NCBI GenBank assembly: GCA_036679645.1
Contig: JAZDCY010000050.1
Coordinates: forward strand, 1-14,673
DNA length: 14,673 nt
Direction of reading: 5' to 3'
Origin: Gemmatimonadota bacterium
GTDB taxonomy: Bacteria; Gemmatimonadota; Gemmatimonadetes; Gemmatimonadales; GWC2-71-9
Each line of letters begins with the position of its first letter. Position 1 is the stretch's first letter. Below the pieces are notes generated by a model, which was not told the DNA's origin, ran no database searches, and was given only the letters and a program-made list of their open reading frames with translations. This document shows, piece by piece, positions 409-13,053 of this stretch. The position numbers were made by a program, and so were the translations under genes.

Positions 409-754
409 CGAGGCTCCGGGTGCGTGGGAATGATGATATGCAGCCGCGGACGGGTGCTCGCAAGTGGTGATAGGCGTTGTGGTTATGCGACGGTGCAGGT
501 CGTGTCGGGATTTGGCGGTAATCGGTGGTGACGAAATGCGACGGGTGGTAGACGCCGAGACGCCCAGGCAGACGCGTAGGCGCCTATCCGCCCCACTACC
601 AACTACATCTCACCCGAGCGCGGAATCCCGCTCCCCTTCCGCGACGGATTGGTACCGGCATTGGGCACGTGGAGCCTTATCGTCAGCGTGCGGCACGGAG
701 AGAATTGCGAGGACCGCGTCGTTTTATGCCAGTGGCCGTCAACCGTATTGGGGT

Positions 755-838
755 GCCGGCGTGGCGAAACTGGTAGACGCAGATACTTCGCATGTATCTG
801 AGCGCAAGCTCGTGCCGGTTCGAATCCGGCCGCCGGTA
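755..838 (+). tRNA. Class II tRNA with tRNA-Leu body and Ala anticodon CGC (non-cognate); CCA not encoded
   Basis: Acceptor GCCGGCG(755-761)/CGCCGGT(831-837), A73=838; D-arm GCG-AAACTGGTAGA-CGC; anticodon arm GATAC-TTCGCAT-GTATC with CGC at 789-791; variable arm GAGC-GCAA-GCTC (800-811); T-arm GCCGG-TTCGAAT-CCGGC; followed by CCC. Confidence 0.92.
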
Positions 839-887: not shown

Positions 888-916
888 TTGACACTCCCGA
901 GGTCCATACCTAGGTT
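888..916 (+). promoter_or_regulatory. Sigma70-type promoter for the putative antisense sRNA 1
   Basis: TTGACA (888-893), 17-nt spacer, TAGGTT (911-916). Predicted +1 near A922/A923, where tRNA complementarity begins. Confidence 0.75.
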
Positions 917-922
917 GGCGGA

Positions 923-988
923 ACATGCGAAGTATCACGTAGCCGGTTTCGCTGTGCCAAGAGAGCCGGGTCTTCGGACCCGGCTTTC
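923..988 (+). ncRNA. Putative anti-tRNA small RNA 1, antisense to the 5' half of the tRNA at 755-838
   Basis: 923-936 ACATGCGAAGTATC is the exact reverse complement of 782-795. 942-958 pairs contiguously with 758-774 using five G:U pairs. It ends in a hairpin and has a paralog at 2881-2946. Confidence 0.75.
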
Positions 989-994
989 GACTTT
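961..994 (+). terminator. Stem-loop with C(UUCG)G tetraloop; likely 3' end of sRNA 1 and possibly terminator for the convergent ATPase gene
   Basis: GAGAGCCGGGTC-TTCG-GACCCGGCTTTC (12-bp stem, one G:U) then GACTTT; the U-tract is weak. Confidence 0.7.
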
Positions 995-1056
995 GCTCTA
1001 GACGCGTAGACGGATCGTTGGACAGAGGGGTAGTTGGACCACGAGGGTCGCCGTCA

Positions 1057-2613
1057 CTACCCACGCCGCCCGCGACGCTTCCCCCTAGCCGCATCACCCC
1101 ACCGAGCCAAGAACGTCGTGATGAACTCGTGCACCCGTGACCCTTCCACCGTGAGCGGCGCCAGTGCCATAGCGACGCTGAGCGCCAAGTGATAGCCCTC
1201 GGACCGCGACGCGACCGCCCGCTGATACGCCGGATGCGCATCGTTGACCCACACAGTCGATTCCACAAGCCGGCCCAGCTCGGGATCGTCAGGCCGGCTC
1301 TCGAACCGAATACTGAGCCCGTAGCGTGCCGGACGCCGCCGCCCTGTGCCAGGAAGCCCGGTACTCTTGGGCTCGACCGGCGCGCGGGACGCGGTCTCCG
1401 ACGCGGTTTCGGGCGCCGCTCGCTCCACCTCCGGCTCCGCGGTCTCCGCGCCTTTGGGCTCAACGGGGACCGGGGCCGCGTCTTCCGGAGCCGGAACGGC
1501 ACCCGGGCCGCCCCCGCCCAACGGCAACCGGCGCTGGCCGCCGGGCCGCCGCTCGACCAGTGCCGCGAGCAGGGGAAACTCGTCGGCCAGATCGGCTAAC
1601 AGGTTTCTGAGATCCCGCTCGATCGGACGCGTACGGCGCTGCCGCTTCCCGGCTGCCGCCTCCCGCACATCCCCCCACTCCGCGAGCTGCGCCGCCACCA
1701 CCTCCTGTAACGCTTTCCGGTAGACGAGGTACAACGCGCCGCGCTTGCCCGTCCGTATGAAATCCGCCTTGTTGAGCATGAGACTCTCCGCCAACGCCGG
1801 CACTTCGATCAGGCCGCCTATGTGTTCCGGCGCCGCCGGCGTCACGCCCAGCCAGTCCCAACCGCGCTTGATCACCTTGCCGAGCGTGCTGACCGCCACA
1901 CCGCGCTGTTCCTCGCTCAGTGGAACGCCGCTCCGCACCAGATAGCCGGACGCGGAAGGCTTCCGCTTGCGGGGCAGCTTCACCGCTACCGCGACCCGCT
2001 CCCGCACCGACGGGCGCCGACCGAGGAAGTGTCCGTTCACCGCGAAACGCACCCCATCCGGGTACGCCGTCTGGAGGATCGCGTCGAACGCGGGATCGAA
2101 CAGCGGTTCGTACTGCCGCCGCAGCGTGGCTTCGACAAACCCGTCGTCCAACAGCGGACTCAAGGCGTTGTTGAGCGCGAGGCATACCCCGGTTCCGTGC
2201 TGCACGACCCGACCAGGCGGGTCCACCCATTTCCAGGGCGCGCGATGCTTCGATTTCAGATGCCACCGCGTGGCGACGTGGGTTTTCCCGCGTCGCGTCT
2301 CGGTAACGACGTCGTCACACAGCAGCAACCCGAGTTTTATTCCCACTCCCGCGAACCCGATCCCGCTACCCCGCTGCTTCGACGTGGTGGCGAGATCGTG
2401 ATAGCGCCCCAGCTCACGTCGCGTCATTCCCCGGCCGTCATCTACCACGGTGAGCGTCGCGGCCGCGGGATCGGCAGAGAGGACGACCGCCGTCGCCCCC
2501 GAGTCCAACGAGTTGGCTACGATCTCCGTGAGAATCACTTCCTCGAGGGAGCCGGGATAGGCATCCCGCAAGTCCTCGAGCAGGTGCAACAGATCAACCC
2601 GCGTCTCACCCAC
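1057..2613 (-). CDS. GHKL (HATPase_c/Hsp90/MutL/MORC-like) ATP-binding protein, about 518 aa
   Basis: Bergerat-fold motifs EIVANSLDSGA, VVDDGRGM, GIGFAGVGIK and HGTGV. Probable start is GTG at 2613 (MGETRVDLLHLLEDL...) preceded by GGAGG; the ORF track extends to 2643. Pro/Ala/Glu-rich linker before the C-terminal domain; tandem TAG TGA stops. Confidence 0.85.
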   Translation of the reverse strand: MGETRVDLLHLLEDLRDAYPGSLEEVILTEIVANSLDSGATAVVLSADPAAATLTVVDDGRGMTRRELGRYHDLATTSKQRGSGIGFAGVGIKLGLLLCDDVVTETRRGKTHVATRWHLKSKHRAPWKWVDPPGRVVQHGTGVCLALNNALSPLLDDGFVEATLRRQYEPLFDPAFDAILQTAYPDGVRFAVNGHFLGRRPSVRERVAVAVKLPRKRKPSASGYLVRSGVPLSEEQRGVAVSTLGKVIKRGWDWLGVTPAAPEHIGGLIEVPALAESLMLNKADFIRTGKRGALYLVYRKALQEVVAAQLAEWGDVREAAAGKRQRRTRPIERDLRNLLADLADEFPLLAALVERRPGGQRRLPLGGGGPGAVPAPEDAAPVPVEPKGAETAEPEVERAAPETASETASRAPVEPKSTGLPGTGRRRPARYGLSIRFESRPDDPELGRLVESTVWVNDAHPAYQRAVASRSEGYHLALSVAMALAPLTVEGSRVHEFITTFLARWGDAARGKRRGRRG

Positions 2614-2710
2614 AGCGCCTCCGGCCACGCAAGCCCGCATCATCCCGTGAGAGGAGTAACATCACGTCTCTCGTGGTCTCTGTAAACGATATGGTGAACT
2701 ACGTCATCCC

Positions 2711-2781: not shown

Positions 2782-2811
2782 GTGCAGGTTCGAATCCTGT
2801 CGTCGGCACCC
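2782..2811 (+). pseudogene. 3' remnant of a second class II-type tRNA (T-arm, 3' acceptor strand, A73, CCC)
   Basis: GT-GCAGG-TTCGAAT-CCTGT-CGTCGGC-A-CCC; 25/30 identical to 812-841 with a compensated T-stem change. No matching 5' half (GCCGRCG, D-arm, anticodon arm) in the upstream intergenic region. Confidence 0.8.
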
Positions 2812-2845: not shown

Positions 2846-2874
2846 TTACCAAGCACCGAGCTGGAGCGTATCCT
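2846..2874 (+). promoter_or_regulatory. Sigma70-type promoter for the putative sRNA 2
   Basis: TTACCA (2846-2851), 17 nt, TATCCT (2869-2874), then 6 nt to A2881. The geometry is identical to the copy-1 promoter. Confidence 0.6.
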
Positions 2875-2880
2875 CTACGT

Positions 2881-2950
2881 ACTTGCCGGGTCTCCCCGTA
2901 GCCAGTTCCGCTCCGCAGGAAAGCCGGGTCTTATGACCCGGCTTTCCTGC
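2881..2950 (+). ncRNA. Putative anti-tRNA small RNA 2 (paralog of 923-988), displaying codon GCC
   Basis: ACTTGCCGGGTCTCCCCGTAGCCAGTTCCGCTCCGCAGGAAAGCCGGGTCTTATGACCCGGCTTTC; about 51 of 67 columns match sRNA 1 in a hand alignment. CCAGTTCCGC is antisense to a Leu-type D-arm (GCGGAACTGG). Confidence 0.7.
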
Positions 2951-6058: not shown

Positions 6059-9000
6059 CTACCGCCTGATCCCCGCCGCCACCCCCTCCGGCCCCTGGCG
6101 TAACCAGTGCGGCGGGACGAACGGCCGTTCCCGCGGCCACACCTCGTTGAGCGTCTCGCCCTCGTACAGCCGTCCACCCTTCATCACATACAAGATGCGC
6201 ACCGAATTCCGCAGATCCTCCAACGGATCGGCATCGAACACGAGGATGTCCGCCAGCTTGCCCTCCTCGATAGTGCCGAGGTCGGTCCCCAACCCAATGG
6301 CCTCCGCTCCATAGATCGTGGCGGCACGTAACACGTTGTGCGGTGACAGACCGCCCGACCCCAGGGCCCACAACTCCCAGTGGTAGCCCAGGCCCTGCAA
6401 CTGCCCGTGACTCCCCACGCCAATGCGCGCGCTGTCTTCCAACATCGCCCTCACGAACTCGGCGTGTCGCTGGAACACGTACTCCTCCGGCAGGAACCAG
6501 CCACCGCGGCCCGGATTGCCACCGCGGCGCCGGCTACGCGCATCGATGCTCTCTTCGGGTGCAAAGCGACGCAGCTTGGGATCGTCGTGCACGTTCTCGG
6601 TGGTGTAGAAGAAGTTCTCGCCGAACGGCCCGCCGTACGACACGAGCAGTGTCGGCGTGTTGGTGGTCTGGGAAGCCTTGAACAACTCGACCACGTCGTT
6701 GAATATCGGCGTTATCGGCAAGGCGTGCTCGATGCCGGGATAGCCGTCAAGCGCGTGCGTGATATTGAGCCTGAAGTCGAGCCCGCCTTCTGTCGTGGGC
6801 ATCAACTTCAATTCCTTCGCGGCCTGGATGATCCACTGCCGCTGCTGCCGGTTCCCCGACATGTACATCTTGAGCGTGTGCGTGTTGTAGTACTGGCTGT
6901 AACGGCGTAACACGGTCTTTGCGTGCTTGGCGTTGCGAATGTTCTCGGTCAGGAACACGCCCGGTCCCGTCGAGTAGATGCGCGGACCTATCATCCCCCC
7001 AATGTCGATACGATCCTGATAGCTCAATACATCTGTGGATCCGGTCTGTGGATCTCGCGTGGTCGTGACACCGAACGCCAACGTCGTGAGATACTGCCAC
7101 GCCTGCTCGCTGTGGATCTCCGGCACGAGCCACTGCGGGTGGTAGTGCGTGTCCACGAATCCCGGCGTGATGGTCTTGCCGGTGACGTCGATGATCTGGG
7201 CACCCTCGGGGACGTCGACCACTCCCGTGGTACCTACGCCCACGATGCGGTTGTCGGTAATGACGATGTCGGCGTTCTCGATAATCGAGTCTCCCTGCAT
7301 TGTGACCACGCGACCGCCGCGCAACACGATGCTGCCCCGCACGACCTCGCGTGGCAGCTCGACGTCGATCCGCATCTCCGCCGGCTTGTAGCCGGCGGTG
7401 TCCGCCGCCAGGCTGTCCATCCCGGACCGTACCGAATCTGCACGCGCACGAATGACCGCTGCCCGCGCCCGCAACTCGTCGGCAGCACGAATCAACGAGT
7501 CCGCCCGCATCTGCACCGAGTCCGCGGCCAACTGGCTGATACGTTGCGTCAACGAATCGGGGACCACCGCGGAGTCCGCCTTCTCGAGGCTATCCGCCAG
7601 CCCACGCGCGGTCTTGAGGCTGTCGAGCAGGTGCCGGGCCCGCAGCGCCTGTCCGACCGTCTCTCGGGCCGCCTGTTGGGTGCTGTCCTCGATTGCCTCG
7701 ACCCGCGAGAGATCATAGGTGAACAGGGCGTTCCCAATGGACCACCGGATCTGCGTTCCGTCGGCACTCCACGACGGGAACTCGCCGCCCACCTCGGTCA
7801 GTTGCCGCACCAGAACCGGCGCCGCACTCGGTCTGGCCACCGACACGGTGGGAACCGGTACCGTCACTGCCGGCATGTCGATCATGTAGATGTGATTGCC
7901 GACCTGTGCCAACGCCCTCCCACCGGTGGGAGACATCATGACCAATCCCGCCGGCGGTGGGCGCGGGCCCTGTTCGGCCGCTTCCGGGTCCATCACCGAC
8001 GGCTGCAACACCGGTTGGGGGAACACGCGACCCGGGACTACTTCCCACTGCTCCGGATGCGGGTTGCCAAAACCACCCGGTGGTCTGGCACCGCGCACGT
8101 TGAGATGGCGCTTTACATCCGTCCCGTCCCACCTGAACGAGACGAGACCCTCCGACCGGCTGTACGCGTAGATCCGGTTTGGCTGATCTACCCGGAAATG
8201 CGCCACGTCCCGACTGCCGGTGGGCGCGATCAACGTCACGTCGCCACCGCTCGCCGGTACCCAGACGAACTCACCACCCAACGGCCCAAAGAAGACGTCG
8301 GGGGCACTCGTCAGTTGGCGGGCGGCTCCCCGGCTGGCAACGATACGCTGTCCGTCCGGCGACCAGGCGAGGTCGTAGTAGAGCGCCGCCGCACTGGTGA
8401 GTTGCCGCGGGCTGGTCCCGTTGGCGCGCACGCTCATGATGTTCCCGCCCGCCGAGTCATCCCACGTTACGTACGCAAGCGTCGATCCGTCGGGTGACCA
8501 CACGGGGAAGTACTCGCCGATATCCGCGGTCGTGAGACGCCGCGGCTCGCCGCCATCGAGTTGCTGCACCCACAGACGGTCGAAAGCGGTGAACGCGATC
8601 TGCTCGCCGTTGGGTGACGCGACCGGATGCCGGATCTGCCGCGCGGTCACCGTCGCGGATGTATCCACGCGATACTCGAACTTCACTTCCGGCCCGATGG
8701 CGAGTTTGACCTCGGCCTCGAACGGGATGTTCGCAGCGGTGCCTCCGTCGATGGGCACGCGCCAGATCTGGCCGTCGTACGACACGACCACCGAACGTGA
8801 GTCGGGCATGAAGCTGTAGCCCGGCAGCACGTCGAGCGGGGCGCGCGATTCCATGTCGTCCCGTTGCACTGGATACGCCAACCACCGCTCGGCTCCGGTG
8901 TTCAGGTCGCGGATTCGCAGACCCGTCTCCGTGCCGTCACGCGTGCCGAACACCAGCCACCGGCCGTCCGGCGAGATGGCGGGCCGGAACCCCGACCCAT

Positions 9001-9721
9001 AGCGACCGGTCATGCGCGTGGACGTGCCGGTCTCTCGGTCGTACCGATAGAGCTGATACTGCGGGAAGATGGCGTTGTACTGCCAGTCACCGCTCCGCCG
9101 CGCATACCAGATGTGCTGCCCGTCGGGGCTGACCGCCGCACCCATCGTCTTGGCCGACGCCGGGCCGCTGATCACGATCTCCGCGCTCGACCGATGGACG
9201 TTGTAGATCCTGAGCTTGGCCGATCCGCCCAAGCCCCCGGTCCGACTCACCACGATGTGCTCACCGTCCGGCATCCATTCCGGCGAGTAGTACAGACTGG
9301 TGTTACCGCGTGTGACCTGCGTCGTGTCCGTGAAGTCCATACGCAGAGTCCACACGTTGTCGCCGCCGCTCCGGTCGGATACAAAGACGATCGTCTCGCC
9401 GTCGGGACTGAAACGTGGCTGCCCGTCATAGGCGAGGCCTTCGGTGATACGAGTCGCCGTCCCGCCCGCAATTGGTAGCGTGTAGAGATCACCCAACATG
9501 TCAAACACGATGGTCTGACCGTCGGGACTCACGTCCAATGACATCCACGTGCCGCGGGTCGCCGTGAAGTCGGCCGACCGCGCCGCCTCTAACGGCAACG
9601 GCTTTTTCTTGTCGCCACTACCCGGACCTGGCGGGCCCTGCGCGGACAGCGTCGTTACGGCCGCGCCCAACAGTGCGAGACCGGCAACGCTCGAGCGCAG
9701 CGCAATGTGCAGGCGAGTCAT
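6059..9721 (-). CDS. Secreted amidohydrolase family protein with N-terminal PD40/TolB-like beta-propellers (paralog B, about 1220 aa)
   Basis: Start ATG 9721 (MTRLHIALRSS..., GGAGG RBS, signal peptide) overlaps the upstream TGA (ATGA). GTWMSLDVSPDG and P.FSPDG repeats; TITPGFVDTHYH, GVTTTRDP, GPRIYSTG, GIEH, GTIEEGKLADILV. The ORF-track extension to 10165 is spurious. Confidence 0.93.
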   Translation of the reverse strand: MTRLHIALRSSVAGLALLGAAVTTLSAQGPPGPGSGDKKKPLPLEAARSADFTATRGTWMSLDVSPDGQTIVFDMLGDLYTLPIAGGTATRITEGLAYDGQPRFSPDGETIVFVSDRSGGDNVWTLRMDFTDTTQVTRGNTSLYYSPEWMPDGEHIVVSRTGGLGGSAKLRIYNVHRSSAEIVISGPASAKTMGAAVSPDGQHIWYARRSGDWQYNAIFPQYQLYRYDRETGTSTRMTGRYGSGFRPAISPDGRWLVFGTRDGTETGLRIRDLNTGAERWLAYPVQRDDMESRAPLDVLPGYSFMPDSRSVVVSYDGQIWRVPIDGGTAANIPFEAEVKLAIGPEVKFEYRVDTSATVTARQIRHPVASPNGEQIAFTAFDRLWVQQLDGGEPRRLTTADIGEYFPVWSPDGSTLAYVTWDDSAGGNIMSVRANGTSPRQLTSAAALYYDLAWSPDGQRIVASRGAARQLTSAPDVFFGPLGGEFVWVPASGGDVTLIAPTGSRDVAHFRVDQPNRIYAYSRSEGLVSFRWDGTDVKRHLNVRGARPPGGFGNPHPEQWEVVPGRVFPQPVLQPSVMDPEAAEQGPRPPPAGLVMMSPTGGRALAQVGNHIYMIDMPAVTVPVPTVSVARPSAAPVLVRQLTEVGGEFPSWSADGTQIRWSIGNALFTYDLSRVEAIEDSTQQAARETVGQALRARHLLDSLKTARGLADSLEKADSAVVPDSLTQRISQLAADSVQMRADSLIRAADELRARAAVIRARADSVRSGMDSLAADTAGYKPAEMRIDVELPREVVRGSIVLRGGRVVTMQGDSIIENADIVITDNRIVGVGTTGVVDVPEGAQIIDVTGKTITPGFVDTHYHPQWLVPEIHSEQAWQYLTTLAFGVTTTRDPQTGSTDVLSYQDRIDIGGMIGPRIYSTGPGVFLTENIRNAKHAKTVLRRYSQYYNTHTLKMYMSGNRQQRQWIIQAAKELKLMPTTEGGLDFRLNITHALDGYPGIEHALPITPIFNDVVELFKASQTTNTPTLLVSYGGPFGENFFYTTENVHDDPKLRRFAPEESIDARSRRRGGNPGRGGWFLPEEYVFQRHAEFVRAMLEDSARIGVGSHGQLQGLGYHWELWALGSGGLSPHNVLRAATIYGAEAIGLGTDLGTIEEGKLADILVFDADPLEDLRNSVRILYVMKGGRLYEGETLNEVWPRERPFVPPHWLRQGPEGVAAGIRR

Positions 9722-12700
9722 CGTGCACCTCCCCGAATTCCCGCTTCGACAACGGGAGCGACATGACGCCACGGCTCGTCCGGAGCTGCCTGCGCACGCG
9801 GCCAGATCTCGTCTAACGTATCTCCCTCGTACAGCCGTCCGTTCTTCATCACGTACCTTATGGTGTTGGTGTTGCGGATATCGTCCAACGGATTGGCATC
9901 GAGCACGATCAGATCGGCGAGCTTGCCCGACTCGATGGAACCCAGATCGTTGCCCAGCCCAATCGCCTGCGCGCCGAGTATCGTGGCCACACGGAGCGCG
10001 TCGTGATTTTCCATGCCGCCGCTCTGAATGGCCCACAACTCCCAGTGGTACCCGAGCCCCTGGAACTGTCCGTGACTGCCGACGCCGGCGCGCCCGCCGG
10101 CCTCGACGAGTCGCGCTATCCATGCCGCGTGCCTGCGGAAGGCATACTCGTCTTCGTGAAACCATCCGCCCGGACCGGGACCCGGATTTCGCCTTCGCAC
10201 CTTGGCATCGAACTCTTCACTCGGCATGAAATGGCGGATCTTCGCGTCGTTCACGATGTCTTCGTGCGTGTAGAAGTAGTTCTCCGCCCATGGCGCGCCG
10301 TACGACACGAGCAGCGTGGGCGAGTTCGTCGTTCCCGATGTCTTGAACAGCTCGATCACGTCCTCGTACGCCGGGATGATCGGCATCGTGTGCTCGACGC
10401 CGGGATACCCGTCCATCGCATGCGTCATGTTGAGACGATAGTCGAGCCCGCCTTCCGTGGTCGGCATCAACTCGAGTTCGCGCGCGGCCATGATCAACCA
10501 TTGTCGCCGTCGGCGATTGCCGGACATGTACATCTTGAACGTCTTGGTGTCGTAGTAGTCGCTGTAGCGACGCAGCACCCTACGCGCGTGGTCGAGATCC
10601 TCAATGCCCTCCGTCCAGAAGACGCCGGGACCGGTCGAGTAGACGCGGGGACCCGGCATGTATCCCGCCTCCACGCGGTCCGCGTACGACAACACGTCGG
10701 TCGTCGCCGTCTGCGGATCGCGGGTGGTGGTCACACCGTACGCCAAATTGGCGAGGTAGATCCACGGTCGCGTCCAGTGAAGGCCCCAGAGATTCCACAT
10801 GTGCGCGTGCGTATCGACAAAGCCCGGAACGATCGTCTTGCCGGTCACGTCGATCACCTGGGCATCGGCCGGCGCCGAACCGCGTGGGCCGACACTCGCT
10901 ATGCGATTGTTGGTAACCACGACGTCTGCGTTCTCGATCACCTCGGCACCGCGCATCGTCACGACCCGCGCGCCGCGCAGCACGACCGTGCCCTGCGGAA
11001 TATCGCGATTTGCCGTCACCTCAATGCGTCGTTCTTCCGGCCGGTATGTCGTGTCACCGGCAGCGGCGTCGAGTCGATAGGTCACGAACGCGTTCCCAAT
11101 AGACCAGTGCAGCGTGCGTCCGTCCCCGCCCCAGGCGGCGAACTCGCCGCCGATGTCGGTGAGCTTGCGGACCGGCATCGACGCGCTGTCCGGTTTCGTC
11201 ACCATCACCACCGGCACGCCGCCGATCTGCGGCACGGTAACGACGTATACGTCGTTGTTGACCTGCGCCAGCGCGAGGTCGCCTTGCGGCGCCATCATCA
11301 CCAAATCCGCAGGGCGGTGCGGGATGTTCGGCTCGCGACTGTAGTCGCGCGGCATGAGCAGGTCGGAAGTGGGCGACACCTCCCACGCTGCCGGCGTGAT
11401 CGGCAGCCGCCACGTGACCTTCAGGTGTTGTTTGAGATCGGTATTGTCCCACCGGGTCGAGACCAGCGCCACTGGTGGCGGCTGTCCCGGCTGGCGCGGC
11501 CCGCTGGACGGGAGGCGTCCGTAGGAGTAGATGCGGTCGGGGTCGTTCGTGAAGTGAGGGCGAGAGCGGCCGGCCGTCGGGCCGATCACCGTGACGGCGC
11601 CGCCACGTGCGGGAACCCAAACAAACTCCGAGCCTAATCCACTAAAGACGAACGGATCGACGGCCTCCTGCAGGTCCCGTGAGGACGCCCGTATCGCCAC
11701 GATGCGGCCGCCGTCGGGCGACCAGGCGAGCTGCTGGTAGTACGCCGACACCCGGGTGAGCTGTCGCACCCGGCCGCCCGATGCCGAAACCCGCATGATA
11801 TGACCGATCGAATCGTTCCACGTCACGAAGGCAACGTCCTCGCCATCTGGCGACCAGGTCGGGTAATACTCGCCGGTGTTCTGCCCGGTGAGCCGGCTCG
11901 GTGTCCCGTCGGGCAGGTTCATAACGTACAACCGATCGAGCGCGGTGAACGCGACCTGCGAGCCGTCGGGTGACGGCACCGCATCGCGAATCTGCTTCAC
12001 GGTGAAGGTGGCACCGTCGTCCACCGGATAGTCGAACCTCACTTCCGGTCCCACCGCAACTTCGGCGTTGACCGTGAAAGGGATTTTGGTTGGGTCGGTG
12101 CCGTCTATCGGCACATTCCAGATCTCACCGCCATAAGAGATGACGATGGACCGGGAATCTGGCGTGAACGAGTAGCCCGGCAACACGTCCATGTTGGCAA
12201 TGGATTCCTGGTCGTCCCGCTGAATGGGGAACGCGAGCCAGCGCTCCTCGCCCGTCGCGAGTTCGCGAATACGCAAACCCGTTTCGGCGTCATGGCGTGA
12301 GCCGTAGGCCAGCCATGTGCCATCAGGCGAGAGCGCCGGCCGGAACGCCGAACCGTAACGTGAACTCATCGTCGTCCGGGTGGCCGCCTCGCGGTCGTAC
12401 ACCGCGAGTTGATACTGCGGCATGACGGCGTTGTACTGCCACGCACCAGACCGCTGCGCAAACCAGACGTAACGTCCGTCGGCCCCAAAGGCCGGGCCGA
12501 GCATGCGAAGACGACCCGGACCGCCCGCCATCTCGAGGCCGCGGCCGCCGTCAACGTGGTAGAGCCACAGCTTCTCGAGACCGAGCCGCGTGCGTTTTGG
12601 CACTACGACGTAGTTGCCATCAGGCGTCCATTCGGGAGAGAGGTACGAAGCGCCATCGCCGGTGGTAAGCGGCGCCGGATTCCCTCCATCGGCATCGATC

Positions 12701-13053
12701 AGCCACACGTTGTCGTCGCCGCTCCGGTCGGAGACGAACGCGATGCGCGTGCCGTCACGACTGAAGCGTGGTCCCAGGTCGTGGGCAATGCCGTGCGTCA
12801 ATCGCGTGGCCGTGCCACCAGCGATCGGGATCGTGTACAGATCACCGAGCAGGTCGAACACGATGGTCTGCCCATCGGGACTCACGTCCAGGGAAATCCA
12901 CGTCCCTCGAGTCGCAGTGAACCGCGCCCAACGGGCCGGCTCGAGAGGCAGGCCCTGATCGGCTTCCTCCTGGCTCCAGGCAACCTGTGGGAGGGAAATG
13001 GCAAACAGAGGAAGTGCGGCGAGCAACAGACCGCAGCGTCGAGACAACTGCAT
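9718..13053 (-). CDS. Secreted amidohydrolase family protein with N-terminal PD40/TolB-like beta-propellers (paralog A, about 1111 aa)
   Basis: Start ATG 13053 (MQLSRRCGLLLAALPLFA..., GGAG RBS, signal peptide). GTWISLDVSPDG repeats; TIVPGFVDTHAH, GVTTTRDP, GVEH, GSIESGKLADLIVLDANPL. The ORF-track extension to 13941 is antisense to the ABC gene. Confidence 0.93.
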   Translation of the reverse strand: MQLSRRCGLLLAALPLFAISLPQVAWSQEEADQGLPLEPARWARFTATRGTWISLDVSPDGQTIVFDLLGDLYTIPIAGGTATRLTHGIAHDLGPRFSRDGTRIAFVSDRSGDDNVWLIDADGGNPAPLTTGDGASYLSPEWTPDGNYVVVPKRTRLGLEKLWLYHVDGGRGLEMAGGPGRLRMLGPAFGADGRYVWFAQRSGAWQYNAVMPQYQLAVYDREAATRTTMSSRYGSAFRPALSPDGTWLAYGSRHDAETGLRIRELATGEERWLAFPIQRDDQESIANMDVLPGYSFTPDSRSIVISYGGEIWNVPIDGTDPTKIPFTVNAEVAVGPEVRFDYPVDDGATFTVKQIRDAVPSPDGSQVAFTALDRLYVMNLPDGTPSRLTGQNTGEYYPTWSPDGEDVAFVTWNDSIGHIMRVSASGGRVRQLTRVSAYYQQLAWSPDGGRIVAIRASSRDLQEAVDPFVFSGLGSEFVWVPARGGAVTVIGPTAGRSRPHFTNDPDRIYSYGRLPSSGPRQPGQPPPVALVSTRWDNTDLKQHLKVTWRLPITPAAWEVSPTSDLLMPRDYSREPNIPHRPADLVMMAPQGDLALAQVNNDVYVVTVPQIGGVPVVMVTKPDSASMPVRKLTDIGGEFAAWGGDGRTLHWSIGNAFVTYRLDAAAGDTTYRPEERRIEVTANRDIPQGTVVLRGARVVTMRGAEVIENADVVVTNNRIASVGPRGSAPADAQVIDVTGKTIVPGFVDTHAHMWNLWGLHWTRPWIYLANLAYGVTTTRDPQTATTDVLSYADRVEAGYMPGPRVYSTGPGVFWTEGIEDLDHARRVLRRYSDYYDTKTFKMYMSGNRRRRQWLIMAARELELMPTTEGGLDYRLNMTHAMDGYPGVEHTMPIIPAYEDVIELFKTSGTTNSPTLLVSYGAPWAENYFYTHEDIVNDAKIRHFMPSEEFDAKVRRRNPGPGPGGWFHEDEYAFRRHAAWIARLVEAGGRAGVGSHGQFQGLGYHWELWAIQSGGMENHDALRVATILGAQAIGLGNDLGSIESGKLADLIVLDANPLDDIRNTNTIRYVMKNGRLYEGDTLDEIWPRAQAAPDEPWRHVAPVVEAGIRGGAR

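Follow-up and report, generated by a model that had tools for sequence, protein, structure and literature searches.

We examined a window of 14,673 nucleotides, that is, the whole stretch from position 1 to 14,673 of contig JAZDCY010000050.1 (assembly GCA_036679645.1, a Gemmatimonadota bacterium). Near its beginning lies a tRNA gene that combines the identity elements of leucine with an anticodon for alanine. It is followed on the same strand by a promoter-like site, which starts 49 nt past the tRNA, and, 6 bases after the -10 element of this site, by a sequence complementary to the anticodon arm. We refer to such a tRNA together with its downstream antisense element as a module, and Table 1 includes its parts and the other features of the window.

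Table 1. Features of the module and of its surroundings in the window.
Positions	Strand	Feature	Basis
678..683	+	Hexamer TATCGT, inferred as a candidate -10 element of the tRNA precursor; no clear -35	YAnnnT enrichment
690..754	+	5' leader with partial complementarity to the 5' half of the tRNA; predicted cis-inhibitor	Duplex energies
755..838	+	tRNA with Leu identity elements, anticodon CGC (789-791); putative toxin	Sequence and ARAGORN
888..916	+	Sigma70-like promoter TTGACA-17 nt-TAGGTT for the antisense RNA	TTG-N-TAnnnT enrichment across modules
922..995	+	Predicted antisense RNA of ~70 nt; putative antitoxin	Start predicted from where the -10 element lies
961..988	+	GC-rich hairpin of 12 bp, UUCG loop, terminator-like, weak U tail	Fold and enrichment
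1057..2643	-	ATPase gene (GHKL/HATPase_c_3); a passenger that shares the 2.5-kb insert	Pfam PF13589, E 3e-12
2782..2810	+	Remaining 3' part (T-arm, 3' strand of the acceptor) of another family tRNA, now destroyed	81% identical to 812-848
2846..2950	+	Orphan antisense cassette	TTACCA-17-TATCCT at 2846-2874; GGC-arm antisense at 2881-2894; 16-bp hairpin at 2915-2950

The chimeric tRNA and its antisense element

The tRNA folds as an intact 7/5 cloverleaf (ARAGORN score 124). Its acceptor stem has seven pairs, including G1·U72, C2:G71 and C3:G70; the D-arm carries A14, A15:U48 and G18G19U20A20a; the anticodon stem GATAC/GTATC closes the loop U32 U33 C34 G35 C36 A37 U38; the variable arm is GAGC-GCAA-GCTC; and a T-stem of five pairs accompanies U55, C56 and A58, with A73 at position 838. 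In the original prediction, all stems were said to pair except for G1:U72. The D-stem, however, consists of three pairs and an A13·A22 non-pair, which is also present in some canonical tRNA-Leu of this genome. The CCA end is not encoded (CCC is found instead), as in most tRNAs of this genome. It has been reported that leucine identity in E. coli is determined by A73, A14, A15:U48, G18G19 with A20a, U55, C56 and A58, C2:G71 and the long variable arm, the anticodon not being among the determinants (PMC9976931). We used these rules as our leucine checks and found all of the elements in this tRNA; the D-loop and T-loop letters belonged to our search pattern, whereas A73, U48 and 2:71 did not. According to the same source, C2:G71 blocks SerRS and G3·U70 is the alanine determinant (PMC9976931); with C3:G70 in place of G3·U70, the tRNA does not have alanine identity by these rules. 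The predicted combination of leucine elements, C3:G70 and a CGC anticodon was thus confirmed by the sequence and by ARAGORN. Genes for LeuRS (G000:C5), AlaRS (G000:C38) and a PolyA_pol/CCA-type enzyme are all present in the genome. Because leucine identity is present and alanine identity is missing, misreading of GCG as leucine is the likely activity of this tRNA. This copy could nevertheless be a weakened one: G1·U72 and U38 are rare in the family (2 and 1 of 64, respectively), and it also carries a U32-U38 opposition. No match for the window was listed by Rfam at the gathering threshold, and ARAGORN at a lowered threshold returned only noise. A Logan contig of run X1 spans 737-2629 with 0 differences at a depth of 96, a match that is not independent because the contig may stem from the source sample itself.

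A complete leucine identity combined with a CGC anticodon could also mean that the organism reads GCG as leucine throughout, either by codon reassignment or by a lone suppressor acting constitutively. GCG is the most-used codon of the genome (5.1%). In an RpoB alignment of 26 sequences, the other codons used by relatives give an alanine majority at 50 of the 73 GCG columns, and leucine is outside the top six residues at these columns. The normal tRNA-Ala genes, whose presence had been left for confirmation, were found with anticodons GGC, CGC and TGC, together with three tRNA-Val and all five tRNA-Leu. A fixed reassignment of GCG to leucine is refuted by the RpoB columns and the retained canonical tRNA-Ala(CGC), modules for the codons GCC, GUC and GGC occur in the same genome too, and we give this reading practically no credence. 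Of the natural missense suppressor proposed earlier, leucine identity without alanine identity is supported by the E. coli rules, but the picture of a lone constitutive suppressor is not.

The antisense copy reported downstream is real, since 923-936 complements tRNA positions 782-795 at 14 of 14 positions, with a GCG codon mimic at 927-929, and a looser complement at 938-958 pairs with the D-arm and the acceptor 5' strand. The duplex at this locus has a predicted energy of -53.4 kcal/mol. With its own tRNA, the predicted antisense RNA pairs over a run of 14 nt; no other tRNA in the genome offers a run longer than 9 nt, and canonical tRNA-Ala(CGC) offers one of 5 nt. The original prediction used this copy as a mere check against sequencing error; our analysis identifies it instead as the defining second part of the module, with its own promoter-like and terminator-like sites, cognate to the tRNA and, over 85 modules, co-varying with it, and because of this the tRNA is probably kept silent. 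A stricter consensus scan for promoters and terminators listed neither the 888-916 promoter nor the 961-988 terminator; its sole promoter was a minus-strand 9/12 site at 960-931, which we set aside, and it gave no terminators. The free antisense RNA at this locus is predicted to be folded over its own codon mimic (unpaired probability at most 0.04), while this triplet is predicted to be open in 39 of the 65 modules of our set.

The region upstream of the tRNA may provide a second layer of control. A YAnnnT hexamer ends 66-80 nt before G1 in 48 of 65 modules; the corresponding count for nine control windows was 4-15 of 65. In the leader of the window's module, 706-711 complements the anticodon loop, and 716-720 and 727-733 complement the D-arm; in the nascent transcript, G35 is predicted to pair with position 708 (p=0.91). 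Across modules, the median duplex energy between leader (65-75 nt) and tRNA is -35.4 kcal/mol, versus -29.6 for swapped partners, -25.8 for shuffled leaders and -25.3 for canonical tRNA-Leu. In the read-through precursor, the anticodon is predicted to be paired to the trailer in 64 of 65 modules. The nascent-fold measure separates poorly, however (56 of 65 modules versus 12 of 20 canonical tRNA-Leu), and the leader lags behind the downstream antisense, because its match opposite the anticodon is exact in 28 of 65 modules, wobble in 11 and mismatched in 26. Inhibition by the leader is predicted with weaker evidence than that for the downstream antisense.

As for the rest of the window, the ATPase gene gave only a weak PADLOC hit and was not seen beside other modules, so that it is not a conserved module part. 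In a genome of the same genus (G001), 345 bp separate the genes that flank the 2.5-kb stretch, and the site holds no module. No tRNA was called by ARAGORN at 2782-2810. A GGCGGAA-type short repeat, common throughout the genome, occupies 2716-2753, where the 5' half of this second tRNA would be expected. With the GGC tRNAs that the assembly contains today, the antisense of the orphan cassette (2881-2894) reaches no more than 5 nt of pairing, and its target arm is missing from the assembly. Two tandem paralogous PD40/amidohydrolase genes, 70-75% alike, lie on the minus strand at 6059-13000 and appear ordinary.

The module family in Gemmatimonadota

The source assembly (G000) has 52 tRNA calls by ARAGORN, 46 of which do not belong to the family and have a best exact downstream antisense stretch of 5-10 nt. 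The others are five modules with a leucine body (CGC, GGC twice and GAC twice) and one with a histidine body, all with the same downstream layout. In the pairing matrix of the five leucine-bodied modules, the diagonal runs are 14-19 nt and the off-diagonal ones 0-7 nt. The cassette at 2782-2950 of the window is the seventh case, in which the tRNA is mostly lost and the promoter-like site, the antisense and the hairpin have been kept. The histidine-bodied module (G000:C28:57346-57418, minus strand; L269/L274) has G-1, C73 and a GCC (Gly) anticodon, followed by a promoter-like site, an antisense run of 18 nt over the anticodon and a hairpin. Relatives of it were matched in 2 of 200 other genomes, one of them a decaying histidine-bodied tRNA whose antisense mismatches the anticodon. 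Elsewhere in the assembly (G000:C7:130361-130442, minus strand), a Leu-type tRNA lacks an antisense, has an anticodon loop of 6 nt and is probably a pseudogene.

Our wider sample comprised 60 relatives and a pattern scan of GTDB (121 of ~770 stretches), with identical tRNAs merged and ARAGORN scores of at least 100; we considered tRNAs whose anticodon is not one for Leu and whose contig extends at least 120 nt downstream, and we counted as antisense a run of at least 11 nt over the anticodon. Among the matches listed, 62 of 64 chimeric tRNAs of Gemmatimonadota have an antisense (one more, on a short contig, was set aside), in contrast with 0 of 20 canonical tRNA-Leu. The same criterion gave 2 of 62 in other phyla, plus one on a short contig, so that 60 of 63 lack it. 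Of 301 genomes in a later search of the phylum, 26 contained the C36 pattern, with up to 6 copies (46 matches, 30 loci fetched), and all 16 new tRNAs of this fresh set have an antisense. The complementary pattern, present in 13 of 301 genomes, yielded Arg-GCG tRNAs with an antisense in 4 of 5 cases and Pro tRNAs in 0 of 5. Among the matches listed, nearly all named records that carry a module are Gemmatimonadota. One module, L011, comes from the unpublished genome G016, and no conclusion rests on it.

The anticodons of the 85 modules, a list shaped by the search patterns used, are CGC (24), CAC (19), GGC (15), GAC (9), GTC (5), GCG (4), CTC (3), GCC (2), and GGT, TGC, TTC and AGC (1 each), corresponding to Ala, Val, Asp, Glu, Gly, Arg and Thr. 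All seven leucine checks were passed by 60 of 64 modules; among the elements on which no selection had been made, A73 is present in 63, U48 in 63 and C2:G71 in 62, and G3·U70 in none. The five stem pairs of the anticodon arm are all kept in 54 of 65 modules, and four of them in the rest.

The neighbouring genes differ between loci and do not form a conserved defence context. Among 145 of the 152 called neighbouring ORFs at 48 loci, we found no synthetase, integrase, transposase or reverse transcriptase; a role in retro-priming or integration was rejected on this ground. Type II toxin-antitoxin-type genes are neighbours at 8 of 48 loci and PADLOC hits with E<1e-10 were obtained at the loci of 5 of 30 hand-picked proteins, two counts to which we give little weight. 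Plasmid and phage collections gave no module match. Decay affects the tRNA first: at three loci (2782-2950 of the window, L008 and L015) the tRNA is broken and the antisense survives, L008 being located elsewhere on the G001 contig, with its tRNA broken by insertions and its antisense cassette intact.

Pairing between antisense and tRNA is specific to each module. The median number of Watson-Crick pairs is 15 for cognate partners, 4 for swapped ones and 6 for swapped ones with the same anticodon; the cognate partner is the best in 61 of 65 modules, and the co-folding gain falls from -24 kcal/mol to -6 on swapping. One antisense in genome G046 pairs over 13 nt with a second module. We compared 42 disjoint nearest-neighbour pairs, chosen on the sequence outside the anticodon arm; the anticodon differs in 32 of them, and 184 tRNA changes are compensated in the antisense, 26 keep a wobble and 19 break the pairing. 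The anticodon arms have a mean identity of 0.48 (62 of 65 are distinct), versus 0.88-0.92 among canonical Leu isoacceptors. Positions 37 and 38 form Watson-Crick pairs with the antisense in 65 of 65 modules; pairing at 34-36 was forced by the test, and selection of modules on run length removed only 2 of 64. In 42 of 65 modules, the antisense is preceded at a distance of 3-14 nt by a promoter-like TTG-N-TAnnnT with a 16-18 nt spacer, which 45 of 13000 random positions also show, and a stem of at least 8 pairs follows the antisense in 40 of 65 versus 14% at random, the two tests being failed by 23 and 25 modules, respectively. All these pairing and enrichment figures are descriptive counts, because related modules are not independent. 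As far as the sequences can tell, the pairing between antisense and tRNA is under selection.

A purely DNA-level origin, in which an inverted duplication or the footprint of a small mobile element was built on the tRNA gene and no RNA function exists, would agree with the cassette being an insert relative to G001 and with the unrelated neighbourhoods. However, the complement begins 3-8 nt past a conserved -10 box and closes in a hairpin, it tracks 62 different anticodon arms, it is absent behind all 20 canonical tRNA-Leu, and the neighbouring ORFs include none of the mobility enzymes mentioned above. Moreover, among 910 oppositions at positions 27-40 (840 Watson-Crick, 40 G·U, 14 A·C and 16 other), G·U is favoured over A·C, as predicted for pairing between RNAs of the same strand. 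We regard this origin as very improbable.

Related tRNAs are also found outside the family. In many phyla other than Gemmatimonadota, about 60 long-arm tRNAs (L114-L234) have Leu-type D-loops, non-Leu anticodons (Gly, Asp, Ala, Glu, Asn and Thr; 13 with A34) and no antisense; this set is mixed, because only 25 of 59 pass all leucine checks. A search of the whole locus on both strands for 60 of these other-phyla tRNAs gave only an opposite-strand run at L225 and a tandem duplicate, and otherwise nothing convincing. Two sets of distinct long-arm tRNAs from viral contigs, 27 and 68 in number and all with anticodons other than Leu, include none with a downstream antisense. Such tRNAs can therefore persist without an antisense. 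Viral contigs (L394, L395 and others) also hold 33 distinct long-arm tRNAs with a GTT (Asn) anticodon. In another viral contig (L059), a TGC Leu-type tRNA is preceded by TTGACG-17-TATGAT, an antisense run of 16 nt and a hairpin, so that the order of the parts is reversed. The five Leu-type tRNAs with Pro anticodons (TGG, CGG; L281, L282, L286 = L041, L279, L280) are those without antisense counted above; three of them directly precede a similar basic ORF of ~45 residues with a GPKPE motif, possibly a different system.

Proposed action and competing readings

We propose that the tRNA and its downstream antisense constitute an RNA-only toxin-antitoxin pair, a mistranslating tRNA being kept in check by its cognate antisense RNA, and we assign this reading a probability of about 0.6. 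The sequences themselves show the identity elements, the layout of the module, its specificity for the cognate partner, the co-variation, the patchy occurrence in several copies and the decay that begins with the tRNA; the steps that follow are proposed on this basis. Transcription from the upstream promoter would yield a precursor of leader, tRNA and trailer that terminates at the shared hairpin. In this precursor, pairing of leader and trailer with the anticodon arm and the D-arm is predicted to cause misfolding. Any tRNA that matures would receive CCA and then leucine from LeuRS, and this leucine-bodied tRNA would insert leucine at GCG alanine codons. The free antisense RNA, transcribed from the downstream promoter, would sequester the tRNA by covering its anticodon, probably without RNase III. 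For this enzyme (TIGR02191), we found no match in the source genome and 30 relatives (31 of 31), while 9 of 14 control genomes do match. RNase III cleavage as the neutralising step was rejected for this reason, and blocking is likelier than cleavage of the duplex. If the supply of antisense stopped, through loss of the locus or a shut-off of transcription caused by stress or phage, the stable tRNA would be freed, would corrupt the most-used codon and would arrest growth. The need for an antidote is plausible because tRNAs with mismatched identity arrest or kill E. coli, as described in PMC5389517 and PMC10404621. Several observations weigh against this reading: the antisense RNA of this locus is predicted to fold on itself, the consensus scan listed neither of its sites, part of the modules fail the promoter or hairpin test, C33 may blunt decoding, Val-anticodon members may be valylated, neither mobility genes nor plasmid or phage matches nor a conserved defence context were found, and many similar tRNAs elsewhere persist without an antisense.

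We see an even chance that the whole family works along these lines, as a protein-free system in which a code-breaking tRNA is the toxin and the antisense caps its anticodon. Copies would swap anticodon arms and thereby avoid cross-neutralisation, at least two bodies (Leu and His) would be in use, and an arrest of host transcription, such as in phage infection, would trigger the system, which would then kill through mistranslation across the proteome.

The same anatomy and co-variation would be expected if the antisense acted as a dimmer of regulated mistranslation that benefits the host, so that under stress a partial release of the tRNA would make the proteome more diverse or growth slower, with neither addiction nor killing. 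Substitutions of Ala or Val by Leu are milder than those of Pro. C33, found in 20 of 65 modules, may blunt decoding, and C33 and odd 32-38 pairs may limit it according to PMC11415595; mistranslation by tRNAProX raised carbenicillin tolerance in E. coli, as reported in PMC10404621. A selfish or defensive module nevertheless fits better than a tuned host function, because the distribution is patchy (26 of 301 genomes), several copies coexist without cross-reacting, anticodons switch (32 of 42 pairs) and the tRNA decays first. We consider the host-benefit reading unlikely.

A tRNA under antisense control might also act by another route: it could be charged without decoding, stall ribosomes, titrate LeuRS or EF-Tu, or act as a decoy for anticodon nucleases. 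It has been described that some RNAs of the allo-tRNA type are charged yet unused in translation and that two killed without suppressing (PMC5389517). The absence of an encoded CCA is compatible with such a route. In addition, the members with a Val anticodon (22 of 65) carry A35, C36 and A73 and may be correctly charged with valine, because these are determinants of ValRS (PMC9976931). Against this, cloverleaf scores are on par with those of canonical tRNA-Leu (medians 119 versus 123), 81 of 85 anticodons read codons among the eleven most used of the genome, and the antisense covers the anticodon loop in every module, which points to decoding as the blocked activity. This makes action by another route quite improbable in our judgement, less so than a DNA-level origin.

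If the toxin-antitoxin reading is correct, this would be, as far as our search could tell, the first tRNA under its own dedicated antisense RNA and the first case of mistranslation used as a toxin. It would offer a reason why genomes keep tRNAs with discordant identity and anticodon, which are annotated as ordinary isoacceptors, and a pool from which the reassignment of sense codons could begin. With ~320 bases and a simple pairing code, the module could act as a programmable switch for suppressor tRNAs.

Comparison with known systems

In the type I system hok/Sok, which has a peptide as its toxin, a self-inhibited primary transcript is controlled by a small antisense RNA, and RNase III cleaves the duplex. 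Among other antisense pairs, RyeA is the antisense partner of SdsR. The logic of hok/Sok resembles that of our module, with its predicted self-inhibited transcript and antisense RNA, but the putative toxin of the module is not a peptide and RNase III was not found in the 31 genomes searched.

Several natural tRNAs share the discordance between identity and anticodon. tRNAProX, a natural bacterial tRNA of Streptomyces and others, mistranslates and is toxic in E. coli; it has a proline body and lies beside a dedicated ProRSx (PMC10404621), whereas the module has a leucine body (once histidine) and a putative cognate antisense gene, with no synthetase domain among the 145 neighbouring ORFs or in the window. 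The allo-tRNAs and irregular G-1 tRNAs of Acidobacteria also combine mismatched identity with diverse anticodons, are lethal when induced in E. coli and have been found near toxin-antitoxin genes, and the G-1 tRNAs are charged with histidine while bearing a foreign anticodon (PMC5389517). In allo-tRNAs, the acceptor/T stems are 8/4 or 9/3 and the identity is mostly that of Ser or Ala (PMC5389517), in contrast with the canonical 7/5 leucine body of the module. The word "antisense" is absent from the main texts of four papers on irregular or mistranslating tRNAs (PMC5389517, PMC10404621, PMC11415595 and PMC7609411).

Type VIII toxin-antitoxin systems consist of an RNA toxin and an RNA antitoxin, as in CreTA of Haloarcula (PMC12737573), and SdsR of E. 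coli has been given as another example (PMC11951105). In CreTA, the toxin CreT ties up a rare tRNA, and the creT promoter is repressed by CreA with the help of Cascade (PMC12737573). The toxin of the module would itself be a tRNA, and its antitoxin would be a separately encoded, partial complement on the same strand; no Cas family was found among the neighbours (Pfam, E 1e-5), apart from one weak Cas4-like PADLOC hit at L149 (E 3e-4), and the window has no repeat-spacer form. Judged by its defining sequence features, the module of the window is thus not a tRNA-Ala, an allo-tRNA, a tRNAProX or a CreTA system. A full-text literature search, whose coverage leaves out most subscription journals, returned no description of it. 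At the sequence level only, the module has the layout of type VIII, two adjacent non-coding genes of which the second is cognate to the first; it shares with this type that both partners are RNA and that the toxin is predicted to act on translation, and it is likely a so far undescribed, all-RNA pair of poison and antidote.
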